Assembly (NCBI GenBank): GCA_903916665.1
Contig: CAIWXP010000067.1
Location: 1 to 10,651 of the forward strand
DNA from: Candidatus Iainarchaeum sp.
GTDB lineage: Archaea; Iainarchaeota; Iainarchaeia; Iainarchaeales; 0-14-0-20-30-16
DNA: 10,651 bases
Reading direction: 5' to 3'
Shown here: piece after piece, positions 1,591 through 10,613 of the stretch
Position numbering within the stretch: position 1 is the stretch's first letter
Layout of the letters: every line of letters begins with the position of its first letter
The notes under the pieces: generated by a model
The model's database searches: none
What the model saw: the letters and a program-made list of their open reading frames with translations, nothing else
What the model was told of the DNA's origin: nothing
Program-made: the position numbers and the translations under genes

Positions 1591-1712
1591 TAACCATATA
1601 TAATTATAATCTTAAACTAAGTAATAGCTTATAGTTTTTAAATAGTTTTCTATTTATTTAGGTATTAGATAGCTATTATTTGGCGATTATTTTAATATTA
1701 TTGGGTGATATT
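1591..1712. promoter_or_regulatory. Divergent promoter / 5'-UTR region between the zinc-ribbon gene and the surface-protein operon
   Basis: ATAGTTTTTAAATAGTTTTCTAT (about 1631..1653) closely resembles the TAGTGTTTTTATAGTTTTGC promoter at 9572..9590. GGTGAT at 1704..1709 + ATT + ATG 1713 indicates a leadered mRNA. The minus-strand reading of the same A/T block gives TTTAAAAACTATAAG, a possible TATA for the divergent gene. Confidence 0.4.
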
Positions 1713-3845
1713 ATGAATTTTAAGTTATTTTCAATCTTTCTAATTTTGATTTTAACAATAGGTTTTAGTTTTGCTGCTCTTAGCTCAATTGTAAAAACAA
1801 CAGATTCAAATATTGTAAAAATGGATACAAATATTTCAATTATAAAGGATACCGCTGATTCAAATAAACCAGCTTTGCAATTAGATACTACCAAAACAAT
1901 TACACAGGTAGATGATAATGCAATAAATTTTATTTTAAAAGAAAAAAGTTTAGGTTTTGTAAGTTCTAGTAGTCTCTATGTTTTTGATTCGAATAATTAT
2001 TATTTATATAATACAATAGATTTTGGAAATGCTTCTGCAACAGCCTATGATATTACACCTGATGGAAAATATTTATATGTGGCAACTTTGGAAACAAAAT
2101 TAGTGGATACGGGCTATGGTTCAGACTATGTTGAATTTCCTAAATTACTAAAAATAGATATAAAAACAAATAAAATGTTGGAACAATATGATTTAATAGA
2201 GGGCACAACAGTGAGATATCTAAGAATAGCTCCTGATAATAGAATATATGTATCTTGGGAACAATCCTATAGTCAAAAACCAGGTATGACTGTTTTAGAT
2301 TTCAAAAATGATAAGAAATGGGAATGGTTGTGGAAAGATTATTTTTCAGTAGATAATGCTATATTATCAATACAATTTAATAAAGATGGTTCAATAGTTT
2401 ATTTTGCAACTCCAGATTACTATGGAAATGTTTTTCGTTTAGATTGGGTAGAAAATAAATTTAAAGAAATATTTTTTTCGGATGTTGAAAGTTCAGGAAT
2501 TAGAAAAATGGCTATGAAAATTGATTCAGAAGCTGGTTGTACAATTCAATTTTCAATTGATACTATTTTTTGTTTTGATTCGCAAAAAACTATTATTCCA
2601 ATAACACCAAATTTTACTCCCCGAGATTTAAGATTTAGTAAAGATGGTGAAAAATTTTATACTGTTGGATTTGATTCAGAAAATTCGTATTTAGCAATTT
2701 ATTCTGGGTTATCAAAGGTTGCATTAACAGATATTTATAGTTATAATAGTCCGCAAGTTTTTAATTTAAATGAACCGGATTATAGGGCTGATTTAATAGA
2801 TGTGAAAGAGGATAAAATTGCATATATTGCAATGGTATCTAGAAAATTGTGTAGTTCTTGGGTTTGTGATAAAATTATTGCCATAGATCTATCAAATGGA
2901 AATAAATTAGGAGAGATACAAGATTTAGTTATAGATAGATTTTCTGATGTTAGAATTGCGCCTAAAATGGAATTAGATTATAATTTAATAGGTAAATTAG
3001 ATTTGAAAAATGAATTTAAAGATGCTGTGAATGTTTTTGATATAAAATATAATTATCCTGGTTATAGTTCAACAAATGTACCCATAAATGGAAAGATAGC
3101 TATAGAATTTAATAGAGATGTTGATACAAAAACATTAACAAGTGATAATTTATATTTATTAAATTCTCATAATTTTGTTGTTAAAGGTAAAATAACCTAT
3201 AATAATAAAATTGCAATTTTTGTACCAGAAAGTAATTTGCTAAAGAATGCAACCTATACTGTTTTTGTATTAAAAAAAATAAAAGATACTAAAGGAAATG
3301 TATTATTAAAAGATTATAATTGGAAGTTTAAAACAGGAGATTTTGTTAATGCTCCAGCCATACAGGATAACAATAATGAAAATAAAACAGTAACTATAAA
3401 TTTAAAATCAAATTTGACTTTAAATATTCTTCCTGTTATTCCATTATTAGATTCAAATGATGATTCAAATAACTTAGATTTAAATGACTCAAATAATGTT
3501 GATCAAAATATTGTGGATCAAAATATTGTTGATGCAAATACCATTGACAATAATAAAAATACAGGTAATAATTCCAATAGTTTAGGTTCTGGTTCATCAT
3601 CAAATGGATCTGCAACAATTGGAGTGGATTCAAATTCTAAATCAATTAATCCAGAAATAACTGCAGATTCAAATTCTAAAAATAATTTGACAATAACAGA
3701 AACTAAAAATAAAGATGATATAAATCATTTCGGAAAACAAGATACAAATATCCCTGTTACTAACAATAATGAAGAATCAGGATTCTTTACAAAAATATTT
3801 ATTGCAATAGGAAATTTCTTTAAATGGATATTTAGAATTAATTAG
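1713..3845 (+). CDS. Secreted cell-surface protein: signal peptide, YVTN-like beta-propeller repeats, SbsA/Big_5-type Ig-like domain, Asn/Asp/Ser-rich stalk, C-terminal hydrophobic anchor
   Basis: - Start corrected to ATG 1713 (SD GGTGAT 1704..1709).
- N-terminus MNFKLFSIFLILILTIGFSFAALSS is a Sec-type signal.
- Recurrent [s/t]PDGk-lYVat-like strands (YDITPDGKYLYVAT, LRIAPDNRIYVS, FNKDGSIVYFAT, LRFSKDGEKFYTVG) are typical of YVTN/lactonase-type propellers in archaeal surface proteins.
- 3036..3341 encodes YPGYSSTNVPINGKIAIEFNRDVDTKTLTSDNLYLL...ATYTVFVLKKIKDTKGNVLLKDYNWKFKTGD, which matches the Big_5/SbsA_Ig pattern.
- 3342..3780 is low-complexity.
- The protein ends in ESGFFTKIFIAIGNFFKWIFRIN. 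Confidence 0.85.
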   Translation: MNFKLFSIFLILILTIGFSFAALSSIVKTTDSNIVKMDTNISIIKDTADSNKPALQLDTTKTITQVDDNAINFILKEKSLGFVSSSSLYVFDSNNYYLYNTIDFGNASATAYDITPDGKYLYVATLETKLVDTGYGSDYVEFPKLLKIDIKTNKMLEQYDLIEGTTVRYLRIAPDNRIYVSWEQSYSQKPGMTVLDFKNDKKWEWLWKDYFSVDNAILSIQFNKDGSIVYFATPDYYGNVFRLDWVENKFKEIFFSDVESSGIRKMAMKIDSEAGCTIQFSIDTIFCFDSQKTIIPITPNFTPRDLRFSKDGEKFYTVGFDSENSYLAIYSGLSKVALTDIYSYNSPQVFNLNEPDYRADLIDVKEDKIAYIAMVSRKLCSSWVCDKIIAIDLSNGNKLGEIQDLVIDRFSDVRIAPKMELDYNLIGKLDLKNEFKDAVNVFDIKYNYPGYSSTNVPINGKIAIEFNRDVDTKTLTSDNLYLLNSHNFVVKGKITYNNKIAIFVPESNLLKNATYTVFVLKKIKDTKGNVLLKDYNWKFKTGDFVNAPAIQDNNNENKTVTINLKSNLTLNILPVIPLLDSNDDSNNLDLNDSNNVDQNIVDQNIVDANTIDNNKNTGNNSNSLGSGSSSNGSATIGVDSNSKSINPEITADSNSKNNLTITETKNKDDINHFGKQDTNIPVTNNNEESGFFTKIFIAIGNFFKWIFRIN
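3450..3560 (+). repeat. In-frame degenerate 15-bp (pentapeptide D-x-N-x-[VIL]) tandem repeat inside the surface-protein stalk
   Basis: Units: gattcaaataactta / gactcaaataatgtt / gatcaaaatattgtg / gatcaaaatattgtt / gatgcaaataccatt / gacaataataaaaat. The core pair 3501..3515 and 3516..3530 differs by 1 nt. A separate perfect 15-nt direct repeat gattcaaattctaaa (DSNSK) occurs at 3627..3641 and 3666..3680. Confidence 0.75.
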
Positions 3846-3852
3846 TGATACT

Positions 3853-4401
3853 ATGAAAAATAGACCAAAAGATAGATTTGTGTTATTGCAAGCGTCAGAG
3901 AAAACTTCAGGTACTATAACTAGACTTGCAAGAAATGAGCGCGAAGAACTATTAAATACTAAATTAGCAATAGAATTAGCAAAAAGATTTGATAATAACC
4001 CAAATATTCTATCAACAGAACAATTAGATATATTACAAAAGTATCTTTTAGGTGAATTAGAAAAAGTTAATCCCTTTGAACCTCAAGAAGGATTTGAATT
4101 TGTTTACCAAAATGCAATTCATTTTTTTCTTAGATTAAAAGACTATGAAAAAGTAATTGCATTGTATACAAAATTATTAAAATTAATTAATAAAAAAGAT
4201 TTGAATATTAGTATGGATTGTGCAGTATTGGCAACGGTAGCATATATAAAAATAAATAGATTGGATATTGCGCGAAGAATATATAATTATGTTTTAGATT
4301 ATTCTAAAAAATTGAGTATTGAAGATAAAAAAGCAACAGAATTATTATTTGAGGATTTATTTAAAGAGCATAGTATTGATATTAAGCAATTAAATGGGTG
4401 A
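3853..4401 (+). CDS. Hypothetical all-helical protein with two TPR-like motifs
   Basis: ATG 3853 is preceded by AGTGAT (3844..3849) + ACT, and the upstream stop TAG (3843..3845) overlaps this SD. Two helix-pair segments have TPR-like spacing (AIHFFLRLKDYEKVIALYTKLLKL and AVLATVAYIKINRLDIARRIYNYVLDY). I recognise no catalytic motif. Confidence 0.65.
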   Translation: MKNRPKDRFVLLQASEKTSGTITRLARNEREELLNTKLAIELAKRFDNNPNILSTEQLDILQKYLLGELEKVNPFEPQEGFEFVYQNAIHFFLRLKDYEKVIALYTKLLKLINKKDLNISMDCAVLATVAYIKINRLDIARRIYNYVLDYSKKLSIEDKKATELLFEDLFKEHSIDIKQLNG

Positions 4402-4406
4402 TAATT

Positions 4407-4982
4407 ATGAATGAATATTCAAAAGGATTATTGTGGGTTATTTCGGGGCCTATGTTTGCAGGAAAAACCTCTGAATTAATTAGATTATATGATAGAACTA
4501 TTTTTGCAAATCAAAAATCTATTATTGTTAAACCTAGTTTAGATAATAGATATTCTGATAGTGAAGTTGCAACCCACGATAATAGAACAAGAAAAAGTTT
4601 TATAGTAAATAATATTGAAGAATTAAATGAAATAGTTGCAAAAGAATTGCCAGAAAATGTTTTTATTGATGAAGCACAATTTTTTTCATCAAAGATATTA
4701 AATGTTATTGATGATCTAAGAAAATTAGGAATTAATGTTTATTGTTCTTTATTAAATCAAACATCAGAAGGACATGCGTTTCCGTTTATGGATAAAAAAC
4801 AAGATGTTAGTTCTTTATTGGTTAAAGCAGATCATATTGAAACTTTTTCTGCAGTGTGCCCAGTTTGTGGTAAGAATGCTACAAAAACTTATAAAATAGA
4901 AAGTTCTGGAAATGAAGTTGATGTGGGGGGTTCAAATAAATATGAACCTCGTTGCTATGAACATTGGGAACCTAAAAAGTGA
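4407..4982 (+). CDS. tdk: Thymidine kinase, TK1 (type II) family
   Basis: P-loop GPMFAGKTSEL, Walker-B-like FIDEAQFF, and a lasso/zinc region AVCPVCGKNATKT...VGGSNKYEPRCYEHW. Start corrected from GTG 4398 to ATG 4407. GGTGAT lies at 4397..4402 and contains the upstream gene's TGA stop (4399..4401), followed by AATT and ATG. Confidence 0.92.
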   Translation: MNEYSKGLLWVISGPMFAGKTSELIRLYDRTIFANQKSIIVKPSLDNRYSDSEVATHDNRTRKSFIVNNIEELNEIVAKELPENVFIDEAQFFSSKILNVIDDLRKLGINVYCSLLNQTSEGHAFPFMDKKQDVSSLLVKADHIETFSAVCPVCGKNATKTYKIESSGNEVDVGGSNKYEPRCYEHWEPKK

Positions 4983-4986
4983 TACT

Positions 4987-5625
4987 ATGCCAGAAGTTCC
5001 AAAATTTAAAGGATTAAAAACAGGTCCGTTTAGAAGGCCTACAAAAAAAAATGAAATTCAAACTTTGGATATTGGTACAAGATCTGGTTCAAGATTAATT
5101 TCAAAAGCTAGAAAAAGGCCCGAAAGATCCTATGTTGGTATAGAGTTATCTCCATTTACTCCAGGTGAAGTAAGAGAAAATTATGCAATTCATGGTAGCA
5201 CGCGTGCAAATGATTATTTACAATTTTGTGTTGAAAAAGGCATAAAGATTAGAAATATAAATTTTGATATGCCTATGCCTACTGGCGACGCCTATAGAAT
5301 AGATGATTTTTTAAGATTATTGCCCAAAGTTTTAATGCCCAATGGAAAAGTTTTTATGAATTCAGAAAGGAAAGAATTTTTAGACTGGGTAAGGGATAAA
5401 GCATTAAAAGAAGGTTATTCAATTAGAATTAGAGAAATACCAATAAGAGAAATATTGAGTCATTCTCAAGATAAATTAAGTGGGGTATCAATAACTTCAT
5501 TTATGGCACAATTTTTTAAAGCCTATTCTACCTATCAAACAATGTATCAATTAGAAATAACCTATCCTTTAACTTTAGCCTATAAAACAAAAGAGCAAAG
5601 AAGAAATTGGACAAAACAAAAGTAA
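4987..5625 (+). CDS. Class I methyltransferase-fold protein, divergent TrmB-like (tRNA m7G methyltransferase family); activity uncertain
   Basis: Start corrected from 4912 to ATG 4987 (MPEVPKF...). AGTGAT at 4978..4983 contains the tdk stop TGA (4980..4982). [28 protein letters not shown] aligns by eye with E. coli TrmB [36 protein letters not shown] sits where FFPDPW would be, and [20 protein letters not shown] sits where LqlGGvFhmATDwepYaehM would be. Confidence 0.55.
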   Translation: [212 protein letters not shown]

Positions 5626-6623: not shown

Positions 6624-7067
6624 TTAACGTAATATATTACAATTAGTATCTAATTCAACAAAATATTTAGCTTCTCCGCTAATATATGATTTACATTGAT
6701 TCTTAGGATCATTATCTTCTGCAGTTCTAGGATTATGTGCCAAATCACAGGCCCAGGTTTTTACTTTGAATCCAAAAGCATCAGATAAACAAGGTCCATT
6801 CTCATAGGAAATTGTATTTTTATATTCTTTACACATATTTACACAATCTAAATATGCTTTATTTTGATCTTGATTTAATTGTTGTATTAAATTAAAGTTA
6901 TTTTGATCAAAAGCAGGATTAAAATTATTTACATCTTTATTTTGATCATTAATATCTTTTGGTACTGATTTACTTAACGGTAGTGTAAACGTTAAAATAG
7001 TTACTATTAAAATAAATACAATTGTTACTAATCCCATATACATTAATTCTTTTTTTGTTGCAAACAT
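6624..7067 (-). CDS. Membrane-anchored, extracytoplasmic six-cysteine protein (hypothetical)
   Basis: N-terminal hydrophobic helix MGLVTIVFILIVTILTFTL, a Q/N-rich linker, then a domain with 6 Cys (C75, C79, C93, C107, C125, C143). ATG 7067 is preceded by GGTGAT (7071..7076) + TAA, and the PAN stop TGA (7072..7074) lies inside this SD. Confidence 0.7.
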   Translation of the reverse strand: MFATKKELMYMGLVTIVFILIVTILTFTLPLSKSVPKDINDQNKDVNNFNPAFDQNNFNLIQQLNQDQNKAYLDCVNMCKEYKNTISYENGPCLSDAFGFKVKTWACDLAHNPRTAEDNDPKNQCKSYISGEAKYFVELDTNCNILR

Positions 7068-7071
7068 TTAA

Positions 7072-8289
7072 TCACCTAAAATAATTATTAACTTCTTTTT
7101 GTTTTTCATCAACTTTATCTTTGATTAATATTTTATTAATTGATTCTACAATTTCTTCCTGTGTAACTTTTGTTTTGTTTTTTCTAATTGCAAATATTGC
7201 TGATTCTTTACAAATTAATTTAATATCTGCACCACTTGCGGTTTCAGTCATGTCTATTATTGTTTCTAGATTAAGTTTTCCACAAGGAATTTTTTCTAAA
7301 TATATTTTGAATATTTCTTTTCTTTCCTGTTTATCAGGTAAACTAACTTCAATTATTCTATCAAATCTGCCAGGTCTTAAAATTGCCTTATCTAAAATAT
7401 CTAATCTATTTGTTGCAGCAATTATTTTTATTTTATCACTTTCGTAAAAACCATCCATTTCTACCAATAGCTGGGTCATGGTTCTGTTTACTTCTCTATC
7501 TGCGCCTGTTCCTGAGTCCAATCTATAGGATGCAACACTATCTAATTCATCAATAAATATAATTGTAGGTGATTTTTCTTTTGCAAGTTTAAAAAGATCC
7601 TTTACAACCTTTGCTCCTTCACCAATAAATTTATGAATTAATTCGGATCCGCTTAATGAAATGAATGTAGATTTTGTTTTATTTGCAATTGCTTTTGCAA
7701 TCATAGTTTTTCCAGTACCTGGCGGACCATATAATAAAATACCTTTGGGTGATTCAATATTAAATTTTTTAAATATTTCTGGTTTTGTCATAGGTAATAT
7801 AACTGTTTCTTCTACTTCATTAATTACTTTTTTTAAACCACCAATATCTTTTAGGCTTTGTTTTGGTTTTTCATTTATTTCAAAGGCTATTGCTCTATAG
7901 TCTTTTTCTGGTGCCAAAACATCTAAAATTGCTAAGTTATTTTGTGCCATTACTACTCTGTCTTCAACATTTATTGTTTTTATAATATCTTCGGGAACGT
8001 TAACATAAAATACCATTCCATTGTTTGTTCTTATAACTGCTTTTAGTTTATCTAGGAATATTTCTGAAATTGTTCCAACTATCGCAGGACTATTTTTATA
8101 ATTATTTAATACTTTTTCTAATTTCTCTTTTTCAACATTTAGTGTTTGATTTTGTAATTGAAGACTTTGTGCCTGCATTTTTAATACATTTAATTCTGCT
8201 TTGATTTGATTATAATAGGGATCGCTATCCAATTCAGTGTAGGCATTTAATTGAAAGTCTTTTCTATCTTGATTATCGTAGTTTTCCAT
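7072..8289 (-). CDS. pan: Proteasome-activating nucleotidase (PAN / Rpt-family AAA+ ATPase)
   Basis: N-terminal coiled coil (LNVLKMQAQSLQLQNQTLNVEKEKLEKVL), an OB region, Walker A GPPGTGKT, pore loop KFIGEG, Walker B IIFIDELD, GADREVNRTMTQLLVEMDGF, and Arg-finger region LRPGRFDR. Start corrected from GTG 8298 to ATG 8289 (MENYDNQ...), preceded by AGTGAT + AATT. Confidence 0.93.
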   Translation of the reverse strand: MENYDNQDRKDFQLNAYTELDSDPYYNQIKAELNVLKMQAQSLQLQNQTLNVEKEKLEKVLNNYKNSPAIVGTISEIFLDKLKAVIRTNNGMVFYVNVPEDIIKTINVEDRVVMAQNNLAILDVLAPEKDYRAIAFEINEKPKQSLKDIGGLKKVINEVEETVILPMTKPEIFKKFNIESPKGILLYGPPGTGKTMIAKAIANKTKSTFISLSGSELIHKFIGEGAKVVKDLFKLAKEKSPTIIFIDELDSVASYRLDSGTGADREVNRTMTQLLVEMDGFYESDKIKIIAATNRLDILDKAILRPGRFDRIIEVSLPDKQERKEIFKIYLEKIPCGKLNLETIIDMTETASGADIKLICKESAIFAIRKNKTKVTQEEIVESINKILIKDKVDEKQKEVNNYFR

Positions 8290-8356
8290 AATTATCACTT
8301 TGTATTATATATATAAAAGTAGTTAGGTTTTTATAGGTTTAGTGTTGTATTTAGAT
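8290..8356. promoter_or_regulatory. Divergent promoter region (PAN operon leftward, SLT gene rightward)
   Basis: Plus strand has TTTTTATA at 8328..8335, then exactly 21 nt, then ATG 8357 with no SD. Minus strand has TTTTATAT (8318..8311), then 21 nt, then ATG 8289. The spacing fits an archaeal TATA about 22-27 nt upstream of the TSS, which implies leaderless or near-leaderless mRNAs. Confidence 0.5.
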
Positions 8357-9574
8357 ATGCCTTTGAAGCCAAGAACAAGAAAACTAGCAACTGTTGCATT
8401 AGTAGGTACTTTAATTGGGGGTGCCTCTGGTTTGGTTGTAAAATCTGCAATAAATGCGCATAGGCCAAAAGAATTTCATGCAATTGTGAGCCCAGAAGAA
8501 CAAAAAAAAGAACTTTTTAAAGTTTTAGAAAAGACAAAAGATAAATTTTCTGCCGCAGATAGTTATGTTAAAGCAGCAGTAAGAAAAATTTATGATTATA
8601 AAGATTCCTTTGGTAGAAAGAGATTTGCATCCTGGATTTATAATAATAACCCCGGACAATTTTATGATATTTTAGAACATTATATGCAGGTTAAAGCCAG
8701 AGAATTGGGGTTAGATCCAGAAATACCAAAGTATTTATTTTTTAGAACTGCTTTTAATTTAGAAAATCCAATTGGTGTTTCTGATTTGAATACCATTTCT
8801 AGAATTGTTGGTCGAACAATTACAAGAGAGGAATTATCTCAAGATCCTTTTTTGGCAATAGATTTTGGTTTACAATATTTGAAAAGAATATCTGAAAATA
8901 CAAAACGATCTGATTTAGTAGGTGTTTTAACAGAATTTTTATATGGTCCTTTTAGAACAAATAAAGCATTTCAGAAAAAAACAAAAGATGTTCGAGACTT
9001 ATTGACTGATTATAATACCAATTATTCTTCTAAGTTAGATAAACAAAAAGTTAGAGAATCAGGTAGAGCATATTTAAAAACTTTAGATTTATTTGTAGAT
9101 TTATCAAAACAATTAGATATGCCAACTTTTGAAAGATTATCTCCTGATGAACGAAAAGTAGAAATAATTAGATTTACAAGTTTAATCTGTGAGCGATTAA
9201 ATTTAGATTTGCAAACAGTTTTGCGTATGATTGTTGTTGAATCTCATTTTAATCATACTAATCAAAATTTAAGAACCAAAGCTTTAGGGCTTTTACAAAT
9301 AGAACCAATTAATTTTAATGAATTAAACAAAAGAGTTGGTGGCTTTGAAAGAATATTTGGACGAGTTATTTCGTTTGAAGATTTAAGAAATCCCTATGTG
9401 GATTTAGTAATGGGTGTTTTGTATTTTAAATATTGTTTGATTTCTCTTCAGGATTTAGATGCTGCAATTCAAGCACATAATGTAGGTTTGGATGCTTATT
9501 TACTAGGAAAACCTGAAACTATGGCAGCTGGTCAAAGATATTTAATGAAAGTAAAAACAGCAACAATAGAATAG
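8357..9574 (+). CDS. Membrane-anchored protein with tandem SLT (lytic transglycosylase / goose-lysozyme-like) domains: N-terminal degenerate copy, C-terminal catalytic copy
   Basis: - Start corrected to ATG 8357 (MPLKPRTRK...).
- TM helix LATVALVGTLIGGASGLVV.
- The C-terminal domain (about 9173..9511) has the SLT signature MIVVESHFNHTN...ALGLLQI (catalytic Glu codon GAA 9239..9241; E-S...GLxQ), then LRNPYVDLVMGVLYF and AAIQAHNVG (the AYNaG equivalent).
- An earlier segment (about 8684..8956) repeats the same architecture: LGLDPE..LFFRTAFNLENPIGVS...DPFLAIDFGLQYLKRI...VLTEFLYGP. It has Thr (8747..8749) where the catalytic Glu should be. Confidence 0.75.
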   Translation: MPLKPRTRKLATVALVGTLIGGASGLVVKSAINAHRPKEFHAIVSPEEQKKELFKVLEKTKDKFSAADSYVKAAVRKIYDYKDSFGRKRFASWIYNNNPGQFYDILEHYMQVKARELGLDPEIPKYLFFRTAFNLENPIGVSDLNTISRIVGRTITREELSQDPFLAIDFGLQYLKRISENTKRSDLVGVLTEFLYGPFRTNKAFQKKTKDVRDLLTDYNTNYSSKLDKQKVRESGRAYLKTLDLFVDLSKQLDMPTFERLSPDERKVEIIRFTSLICERLNLDLQTVLRMIVVESHFNHTNQNLRTKALGLLQIEPINFNELNKRVGGFERIFGRVISFEDLRNPYVDLVMGVLYFKYCLISLQDLDAAIQAHNVGLDAYLLGKPETMAAGQRYLMKVKTATIE

Positions 9575-9605: not shown

Positions 9606-10613
9606 ATGGATTCAGTTTTTAAAGTTTTAATTGCTGCAATTGTTTTTGGAGCATTATTAGCAATTATACTTACATTTTTTGTTTTTCCTAAAGATGATCC
9701 ATATTTGGAAATATCAAAAACAATTAAATTAGCAGTAACCGATGCTGGAAATCCCTATTGTTCAAAAATAGATTTAATTAAAAATAATGCAATAACTACA
9801 AAAGTTTTAAACCAAACAAGTTTATTAATTAATGAATCAATCTATGTTTGGTTTTCGACTTTAAATCCTAAATTAAATGTTTTTAATTCTGATAATTTAT
9901 CTAGTATTTCTTCAAATGAAAGTTTTAAACAAATAGATTTTTGTGCTATTTGTTTTCCTGGAATTATATTTAAAGATTATTCAGACTTATCAGTTATATT
10001 AAAAAAGAATAATAATTATTGTGAAGTTGTTTTTGGAAAGAAATTATTACCTCAAACTAGTAATTTAAATGCATTTAATTTAGAAGAACAACAAGGGTTT
10101 AAAAAAATAAATTTTAATGATACTTTACCAGCAGGTTATATTTATGCAGTTTATATTTTAAACAATGAACAAAAACAAATGATGTCATCAGACAAATTGT
10201 CTTTTTTGGGCGAAACAAAAGATACAAATATTGAAAAAGTATTTTATTTTAATAATATAAATAAGAATGATGCAAATATTGAAATTCCTAAGGCAGGAGA
10301 AAAAATAGTTTTGCAAGCAATTATGCAGGATAGTAGAAACATATTTGCAGGTCCCATATATCCAATCAAATTTTTAGTTCAATCAATAAATGTTATTCCA
10401 AATGATAATTATCAAATGATTGGTTGTAAAACAACTACTCAAGAAAATCAAGGCAAAGATTATGATTTGCAGAAATGTTTAGTTTATAATTATTGTGATG
10501 GTTGCTTTTTAGCAAGTCATTGTGCTAAGGCATGGGAAGATAAAGGAATAATTTCTGAAGCTGCAACAACAACCTATTCTAAATCTTATTTGCCATTTGA
10601 AAGTTGTAATTGA
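9606..10613 (+). CDS. Membrane-anchored extracytoplasmic protein with Cys-rich C-terminal module (hypothetical)
   Basis: Start corrected from TTG 9588 to ATG 9606 (MDSVFKV...). TM helix VLIAAIVFGALLAIILTFFVF. There are 10 Cys in total, 6 of them in the last 62 aa (10425..10610: CKTTT...QKCLVYNYCDGCFLASHCAKAW...ESCN). I recognise no family. Confidence 0.7.
   Translation: MDSVFKVLIAAIVFGALLAIILTFFVFPKDDPYLEISKTIKLAVTDAGNPYCSKIDLIKNNAITTKVLNQTSLLINESIYVWFSTLNPKLNVFNSDNLSSISSNESFKQIDFCAICFPGIIFKDYSDLSVILKKNNNYCEVVFGKKLLPQTSNLNAFNLEEQQGFKKINFNDTLPAGYIYAVYILNNEQKQMMSSDKLSFLGETKDTNIEKVFYFNNINKNDANIEIPKAGEKIVLQAIMQDSRNIFAGPIYPIKFLVQSINVIPNDNYQMIGCKTTTQENQGKDYDLQKCLVYNYCDGCFLASHCAKAWEDKGIISEAATTTYSKSYLPFESCN

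Follow-up and report, generated by a model that had tools for sequence, protein, structure and literature searches.

Why should an archaeon that has no murein of its own carry, and keep, a gene for a protein of the murein lytic transglycosylase type? This question is raised by a stretch of 10,651 nucleotides (hereafter referred to as the window; positions 1 to 10,651 of contig CAIWXP010000067.1, assembly GCA_903916665.1) from Candidatus Iainarchaeum sp., in which a complete gene on the plus strand (8357..9574) encodes an SLT-domain protein of 405 aa (P0001). A preliminary description of this DNA, made from its letters, had already proposed an SLT/GH23-like protein in an archaeal, DPANN-like context. 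The analysis reported here favors, with moderate confidence, an exported GH23 lytic transglycosylase of the family-1 type, which would cleave bacterial peptidoglycan outside the cell and could serve attack, attachment or scavenging.

By profile, motifs and fold alike, the C-terminal lobe of the protein is a member of the Pfam SLT / GH23 family. The match to Pfam SLT (PF01464) covers residues 280-379 and, with an E-value of 1e-14 and 54.5 bits compared to a gathering score of 21.3, goes far beyond what chance would give; on the basis of this, the family profile and the Foldseek matches the catalytic SLT/GH23 domain is delimited to residues 262-405 (9140..9571, +). The three motifs quoted in the preliminary description, VVESHF, ALGLLQI and QAHNVG, are all found at codon level. 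Motif I, within VVESHF, consists of E295-S296 (codons GAA TCT; 9239..9244, +), the putative catalytic Glu with its partner Ser; this Glu is the residue previously numbered 300, as counted from an upstream GTG codon. Motif II (GLMQ), here G311-L-L-Q314 (9287..9298, +), is part of ALGLLQI, while motif III (AYNxG), here A373-H-N-V-G377 (9473..9487, +), is part of QAHNVG. Hence, the complete motif set of family-1 lytic transglycosylases is present, with a His in place of the Tyr of motif III. Residues E295, S296, G311, L312, Q314 and G377 are invariant in 13/13 family sequences, which otherwise share an overall identity of only 25-38%, and this conservation of E-S, GLxQ and the final Gly points to selection for catalysis. 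Ala373 and Asn375, in turn, each vary in a few family sequences, and Y395 is a candidate for the conserved C-terminal Tyr. When compared with the sequences in the PDB, the family profile finds MltC (3.8e-8) and Slt70 (3.6e-7) and aligns E295-S296 with Glu478-Ser479 of E. coli Slt70, of which Glu478 is the known catalytic residue; a phmmer search of the PDB sequences using the single protein gave no match.

The fold was assessed by AlphaFold, for which a single-sequence model proved unusable (predicted local distance difference test, pLDDT, of 38.7), so that the model used was built on the 13-sequence family alignment. This model is all-helical, with a pLDDT of 83.7 and a predicted template modeling score (pTM) of 0.76. 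In a Foldseek search against the PDB, lytic transglycosylases were the top matches, namely LtgA from Neisseria, MltE and MltC from E. coli, as well as Slt and MltF from Pseudomonas, followed by Cj0843 from Campylobacter, gp144 of phage phiKZ and then goose lysozyme. Included among these matches are structures of MltE with chitopentaose and of Cj0843 with chitotriose. Against BFVD, proteins resembling goose egg-white lysozyme (GEWL-like) and phage transglycosylase proteins were retrieved. The predicted fold is thus the lysozyme-like (goose-type) alpha-helical one of SLT/GH23, and the earlier assignment of the protein to SLT/GH23 is borne out.

In addition to this catalytic lobe, the protein contains a second, degenerate SLT-like domain at residues ~96-200 (8642..8956, +), in which the catalytic Glu has been lost. 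It keeps an NPxG, DPF, ID-G-L and Y-x-G skeleton, with R130-T131 replacing Glu-Ser, and its family-invariant motifs F-x4-F-x-L-x-N-P-x-G, D-P-F-x3-D and L-T-x-Y-x2-G follow the same skeleton as the catalytic domain. BLASTP of the N-terminal against the C-terminal half gives an E-value of 2e-4 in the register GRTITREELSQDPFLAIDFGLQYLK / GRVISFEDLRNPYVDLVMGVLYFK. The evidence for a duplication rests on profile-profile comparisons: hhalign of the family N-region against the C-region yields a probability of 92.6% and an E-value of 6e-8 over 123 columns, and the N-region aligns in the same register with an independent alignment of SLT proteins from outside the family (probability 86%, E 5e-6). The isolated N-region matches Pfam SLT below threshold (E 0.018), while a search of the PDB sequences with the N-domain profile returned noise only. 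Where the catalytic Glu would be expected, Arg130 is found here and Leu, Val, Asn or Ser in the relatives, but never Glu, and the Gln of GLMQ is absent from the N-domain as well. The N-lobe is therefore likely a duplicate of the SLT domain that is catalytically dead.

The two lobes are embedded in a simple overall layout, which runs from an export signal via a variable helical spacer to the pseudo-SLT lobe and from there via a long helix to the catalytic SLT lobe. The spacer (residues 29-95; 8441..8641, +) displays a family identity of 12-24%, and its pLDDT stays under 60 as far as residue 70 or so. The connecting helix (residues 202-242) with its linker (together residues 201-261; 8957..9139, +) is modeled by AlphaFold with pLDDT values above 90 at a family identity of 14-26%. 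At the N-terminus, residues 1-28 (8357..8440, +) read as a Sec-type signal peptide or signal anchor, consisting of the n-region MPLKPRTRK with a charge of +4 (+3 to +8 in the family) and a subsequent h-region. The hydrophobic segment comprises residues 10-28, with a maximum of 2.0 on the Kyte-Doolittle (KD) hydropathy scale at residue 10. Its uncharged h-region spans 19 residues here and 14-20 across 10 homologues, 14-17 in most of them, and in relatives it often ends in Gly, Pro or His. Since such a Sec-like n/h architecture occurs in all full-length family members, the protein is likely exported, either secreted or anchored. Of the previously suggested external anchoring by an N-terminal transmembrane helix, export is thus the likely part, while permanent anchoring is one of two possible readings of a signal whose h-region measures mostly 14-17 residues in the homologues.

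This reading of the N-terminus includes the choice of the start codon. The open reading frame (ORF) extends from 8342 to 9574 on the plus strand and starts with GTG, which would give a protein of 410 aa, whereas the in-frame ATG at 8357 results in 405 aa. The latter appears to be the better start, because all full-length homologues begin with M-P-[LI]-K and because a conserved TATA-like box lies approximately 20 nt upstream of it in 8 loci. In the window, this box is TTTTTATAGG (8328..8337, +), and A/T boxes are found at equal distance from the ATG of the SLT gene in 8/8 loci compared. Judging from the position of the box, whose promoter role we infer, the SLT transcript is predicted to be leaderless or near-leaderless. 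The 58-nt intergenic region (8299-8356) separating the SLT gene from the divergent gene for the proteasome-activating nucleotidase (PAN) holds two A/T-rich TATA-like boxes, one per gene, both of which are kept in position in the 8 loci, and this suggests back-to-back leaderless promoters. Neither a tRNA nor an Rfam element was detected in the window.

How widespread this protein is was addressed with HMMER: an exhaustive search, covering 1.84 billion representative proteins, returned only 21 matches, 10 of them (P0002-P0011) belonging to the same family. Nine of these 10 are of ~380-420 aa and two-lobed like the window protein, while P0011 (266 aa) lacks the N-terminal part. The longest protein among the matches measures 581 aa, short paralogues also occur, and the nearest non-family proteins reach only an E-value of 4e-5. 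The SLT family is thus tiny and isolated, being made up of ~400-aa proteins in about 12 clusters among the 1.84 billion representatives. Other searches were less productive: a word-indexed protein search recovered the query alone and, with the family profile, one relative and one weak match; a contig scan yielded no relative with the single protein, and one archaeal plus one weak bacterial locus with alignment A2. In NCBI, the family member PIU22437.1 is annotated as "hypothetical protein" only. One locus (L006, 151-2946) carries three SLT genes in tandem, of which the first encodes a 401-aa full form and the others single-domain copies of 151 and 154 aa; these short copies are devoid of an export signal and, given the very low coverage of the contig (about 1x), could be paralogues or fragments. 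For the nearest outside-family SLT proteins, P0014, P0015 and P0017, the flanks are too short or ambiguous to point to a donor lineage. P0017 (206 aa; L011 4268-4888) is encoded beside genes for QueC, PTPS (QueD-like), DUF366 and threonyl-tRNA synthetase, and may represent another SLT gene in a small-genome organism.

The genomic surroundings of the family are archaeal and highly conserved. PAN (7072..8298, -), which is transcribed divergently from the SLT gene and serves as archaeal marker and synteny anchor, matches NCBIfam NF003069 with 452 bits and adjoins the SLT gene in 7/7 loci having an upstream flank. In the same neighborhood, the window further encodes deoxyhypusine synthase, recognised with an E-value of 3e-98, as well as thymidine kinase, a small ferredoxin and a member of the His-phosphatase family. 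The conserved order comprises ferredoxin, an orphan of ~145 aa, PAN, the divergent SLT gene, a Cys-rich orphan and DedA/VTT, and on longer contigs it continues with beta-CASP, TatD, a methyltransferase and Trm5. As far as the contigs extend, this order is kept in every family locus inspected. It recurs in seven metagenomic loci besides the window, which were assembled independently from different samples (JGI, ENA, Logan and NCBI). One of them, L004 (PEXK01000020.1), belongs to a metagenome-assembled genome (MAG) that is placed by NCBI taxonomy in Archaea; Nanobdellati; Candidatus Iainarchaeota (Diapherotrites). GC content is uniformly 0.22-0.34, with 0.24-0.31 across the block, tblastn against 50,697 phage records gave no match, and PHROG matches are weak and of unknown function (best E 8e-6). 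The viral context or close viral homologues typical of phage transglycosylases are thus missing, and the gene is flanked by housekeeping genes instead. The recurrence of this gene order in independent assemblies, together with the uniform GC content and the negative phage search, rules out a chimeric contig, contamination with bacterial DNA, a prophage and a recently transferred gene. Hence, the SLT gene is a long-standing, vertically inherited resident of this archaeal lineage, and the archaeal context and DPANN-like origin assumed in the preliminary description hold.

Within this conserved block, the SLT gene is the fastest-evolving one, while its catalytic motifs are kept. When the window proteins were compared with their syntenic orthologues in five loci, identities amounted to 89% for deoxyhypusine synthase, 80-89% for thymidine kinase, 66-90% for ferredoxin and 65-71% for PAN, but only to 30-46% for the downstream Cys-rich orphan and to 26-38% for the SLT protein. 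Fast divergence combined with kept catalytic motifs is typical of secreted or surface proteins that face other organisms.

Taken together, these data can be accommodated by a mechanism in which a DPANN archaeon related to Iainarchaeota/Diapherotrites would export a two-lobed, all-helical protein that acts on bacterial walls. In the C-lobe, Glu295 would function as single acid/base to cut the beta-1,4 bond between N-acetylmuramic acid (MurNAc) and N-acetylglucosamine (GlcNAc) of bacterial peptidoglycan, presumably yielding 1,6-anhydroMurNAc ends. The N-lobe, as an ancient duplicate of the same domain with the catalytic Glu lost, would most likely provide an extra binding surface for glycan strands and thereby replace a classical cell-wall-binding module. 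Since such archaea have no murein, the substrate would be the wall of neighboring bacteria, living or dead, which the enzyme could breach, hold on to or scavenge. Several points weigh against this interpretation. GH23 also holds hydrolytic lysozymes and chitinases, and membership therefore fixes neither reaction nor substrate. At position 374, the window protein alone has His, where the 12 other family sequences have Tyr. The Foldseek matches to the PDB, obtained with the full-length query, have probabilities of ~1.0 but marginal E-values (from 5e-3), and no Pfam domain besides PF01464, in particular no recognised peptidoglycan-binding domain, was found in the protein. Also, the gene is consistently found next to those for a Cys-rich membrane protein and DedA, which could point to a role in the archaeon's own envelope. 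Moreover, a capacity for free-living growth has been proposed for Iainarchaeota (PMC10936187), so that episymbiosis on bacteria cannot be taken for granted, and the reports on SLT/GH23 genes in DPANN (PMC8204110, PMC9723730, PMC10936187, PMC11537232) include no biochemistry.

The role in the own envelope just mentioned is the remodelling of an own glycan, for instance a GlcNAc-rich polymer, by the SLT protein together with the Cys-rich membrane protein and DedA/VTT. In each locus, the SLT, Cys-rich and DedA genes do indeed follow one another in the same orientation, separated by 1-48 nt. The SLT gene resembles a vertically inherited core gene more than it does an accessory weapon, and bacterial DedA proteins are linked to the recycling of the polyprenyl-phosphate carrier. 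However, the whole block of ~15 kb is collinear, including the unrelated genes for PAN, Fer4, thymidine kinase, beta-CASP, TatD and Trm5, and adjacency therefore carries little functional signal; in most loci, the Cys-rich gene is preceded by a separate TATA-like box; DPANN archaea are not known to possess a murein-like polymer; and the very fast divergence suits an outward-facing role better than housekeeping remodelling. We therefore consider remodelling of the own envelope unlikely. A function mainly as adhesin that binds bacterial walls, with catalysis being secondary or lost, would agree with one lobe already being a pseudo-enzyme, with the change from Tyr to His in motif III of the window protein and with the attachment role proposed for the large SLT proteins of DPANN (PMC8204110). 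This is distinctly unlikely, as the strict invariance of Glu-Ser and GLxQ in the C-lobe at 25-38% identity is hard to explain without catalysis. Quite improbable is a nutritional role in which chitin, chito-oligosaccharides or some other polymer of beta-1,4-GlcNAc is cleaved or bound: a minority of GH23 members are chitinases and lytic transglycosylases do bind chito-oligosaccharides, as in the MltE/chitopentaose and Cj0843/chitotriose structures retrieved, but E-S, GLMQ and AYNxG occurring together are diagnostic of the family-1 murein lytic transglycosylases, and no chitin-utilization genes are found nearby.

The preliminary description had offered two further roles, a VirB1-like component of a surface or secretion apparatus and an attack on a pseudomurein-containing partner, both of which have become highly improbable. 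Small bacterial SLT proteins often serve a secretion or pilus apparatus, and an archaellum could be considered in the same way, yet genes of a secretion, pilus, flagellar or archaellar apparatus are absent from the surroundings of the SLT gene in all 8 loci, and the organism lacks a wall that would have to be opened. A lysin acting on a methanogen partner would fit the fact that DPANN often have archaeal hosts; on chemical grounds, however, pseudomurein is an unlikely target, since its bonds are beta-1,3 and its N-acetyltalosaminuronic acid has no C6-OH from which a 1,6-anhydro product could be formed. Hardly credible, finally, is an artefact in the form of contamination, a chimeric contig, recent horizontal acquisition or a prophage remnant: SLT domains are overwhelmingly bacterial and phage-borne and weak PHROG matches exist, but the same gene occupies the same place in 7 independent assemblies, and neither GC content, phage searches nor the remoteness of the nearest non-family proteins speaks for a foreign origin. 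The cleavage of bacterial peptidoglycan by an exported enzyme can also be extended to a more far-reaching proposal, in which the lineage, although often viewed as possibly free-living, depends on physical contact with bacteria and the conserved, fast-evolving pair of dead and active SLT domains constitutes its core device for gripping and cutting walls. Here, the pseudo-enzyme lobe would recognize the host-specific glycan strand, and the rapid divergence of the gene would result from an arms race with the walls of the hosts. Although we regard this proposal as rather unlikely, it would, if true, make the dead/active SLT pair a molecular marker, valid throughout the lineage, of archaea that live as episymbionts on bacteria or prey on them.

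Murein transglycosylase genes as such are not new to DPANN genomes, from which they have been reported repeatedly (PMC8204110, PMC9723730, PMC10936187, PMC11537232), with earlier sightings by Rinke 2013 and Castelle 2015 as cited by PMC8204110. Thus, the presence of an SLT gene in a murein-free archaeon, emphasized as unusual in the preliminary description, is real, but to call it unusual goes too far. One of the reported groups is fam00969, whose large extracellular SLT proteins, typically from Pacearchaeota and Woesearchaeota, reach ~3000 aa (PMC8204110). GH23 proteins were also found in Woesearchaeota MAGs, for which a "vampiristic" lifestyle was proposed (PMC9723730), and in both cases bacterial walls have been suggested as target. 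The window protein shares with fam00969 the SLT/GH23 domain in a DPANN genome, the predicted extracellular location and the proposed binding or degradation of bacterial walls. Compared by description, it is set apart from these very large multidomain proteins by its 405 aa, its Iainarchaeota-matching context and its tandem of dead and active SLT domains. With the bacterial family-1 lytic transglycosylases Slt70, MltC, MltE and LtgA, which give the best profile and structure matches, it has the catalytic fold and the E-S, GLMQ and AYNxG motifs in common. In contrast to them, however, it resides in a murein-free archaeon, displays ~15% identity in structural alignments, carries the mentioned His in motif III and possesses a dead SLT duplicate instead of the U/L superhelix of Slt70, the N-domain of MltC, a lipoprotein anchor or LysM. 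Phage lytic transglycosylases such as phiKZ gp144, PRD1 P7 and GEWL-like proteins resemble the catalytic lobe at the level of the fold, whereas the window gene has no viral context or phage tblastn match and shows conserved chromosomal synteny.

Other archaeal peptidoglycan hydrolases have been demonstrated experimentally to kill bacteria (PMC12352652). Among the archaeal enzymes known are Woldo and Danwoldo from Halogranum (PMC12352652) and the GH25 muramidase of Aciduliprofundum (Metcalf 2014, as cited in PMC12352652), which likewise bear signal peptides and target a bacteria-specific polymer. These enzymes are, however, M23 peptidases, glucosaminidases or GH25 proteins with recognised peptidoglycan-binding domains and look recently transferred, while the window protein has no recognised binding domain and is anciently resident in its lineage. 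The corresponding screen required a catalytic Pfam domain in combination with a recognised wall-binding Pfam domain (PMC12352652); with PF01464 alone, the SLT family described here would therefore have escaped it. In our literature search, no description of this compact SLT family, of its occurrence in Iainarchaeota/Diapherotrites or of a tandem layout of dead and active SLT domains was found. Hence, while SLT genes in DPANN are already known, the compact two-lobed family with one dead and one active domain appears to be new.

Apart from the SLT gene, the window and its related loci contain several other genes of possible interest. Directly after the SLT gene, and in the same position in every locus, lies the Cys-rich orphan (9606..10613, +), which encodes 335 aa with an N-terminal transmembrane helix and 10 invariant Cys residues (alignment A3); its start is probably ATG 9606 and not TTG 9588. 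Across the loci, its orthologues have ~285-342 aa; the window protein and those at L001 9255-10265, L004 6179-7207 and L007 3624-4547 range from 307 to 342 aa. In the relatives, the gene is followed by DedA/VTT, which in the window lies beyond its end. No match to the Cys-rich orphan was obtained in Pfam, PHROG, NCBIfam or the PDB sequences. A second orphan of 147 aa (6624-7067, -) with an N-terminal transmembrane helix and a Cys-rich C-terminal part is located between ferredoxin and PAN in all related loci; it is 49-67% identical among them and has no family match. Farther upstream, positions 1680-3845 (+) encode a predicted surface protein of 721 aa. It is hydrophobic in an N-terminal segment and in its C-terminal tail, and in addition contains a Big_5 Ig-like domain (E 6e-17) and a low-complexity region rich in Asn and Asp. 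As this protein has no counterpart at the same position in the otherwise collinear locus L001, the interval between the deoxyhypusine synthase and thymidine kinase genes can be seen as a variable spot for envelope proteins. The listed 237-aa ORF at 4912-5625 (+), whose product gives only a sub-threshold Methyltransf_4 match, overlaps the thymidine kinase gene (4398-4982, +) by 71 nt. Since its orthologue in L001 is shorter (214 aa) and overlaps thymidine kinase by 4 nt only, the real start of this ORF is probably further downstream.

With respect to the question posed at the outset, murein-cutting enzymes in murein-free organisms are among the few sequence-level clues to interactions between archaea and bacteria. 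To a specialist, an SLT gene in DPANN would come as no surprise; it is the small size, the core status, the fast evolution and the pairing of lobes that make this family a practical entry point for testing the old hypothesis of an attack by DPANN archaea on bacterial walls. What the analysis adds to the preliminary description is a second SLT-like domain in degenerate form, synteny throughout the lineage and the rapid evolution of the SLT gene. The gene is fixed and syntenic in the lineage and not the result of sporadic transfer. Also, in contrast to the giant SLT proteins of DPANN, members of the family are compact (405 aa, no repeats) and can thus be expressed and assayed, and their natural pairing of pseudo-enzyme and enzyme offers a test case for the origin of a wall-binding module from a duplicated domain. 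If its activity turned out to be ordinary, the protein would be one more archaeal GH23 gene product; if it proved active on bacterial sacculi, it would afford the first biochemical support for the long-held idea of some DPANN archaea feeding on or attaching to bacteria.

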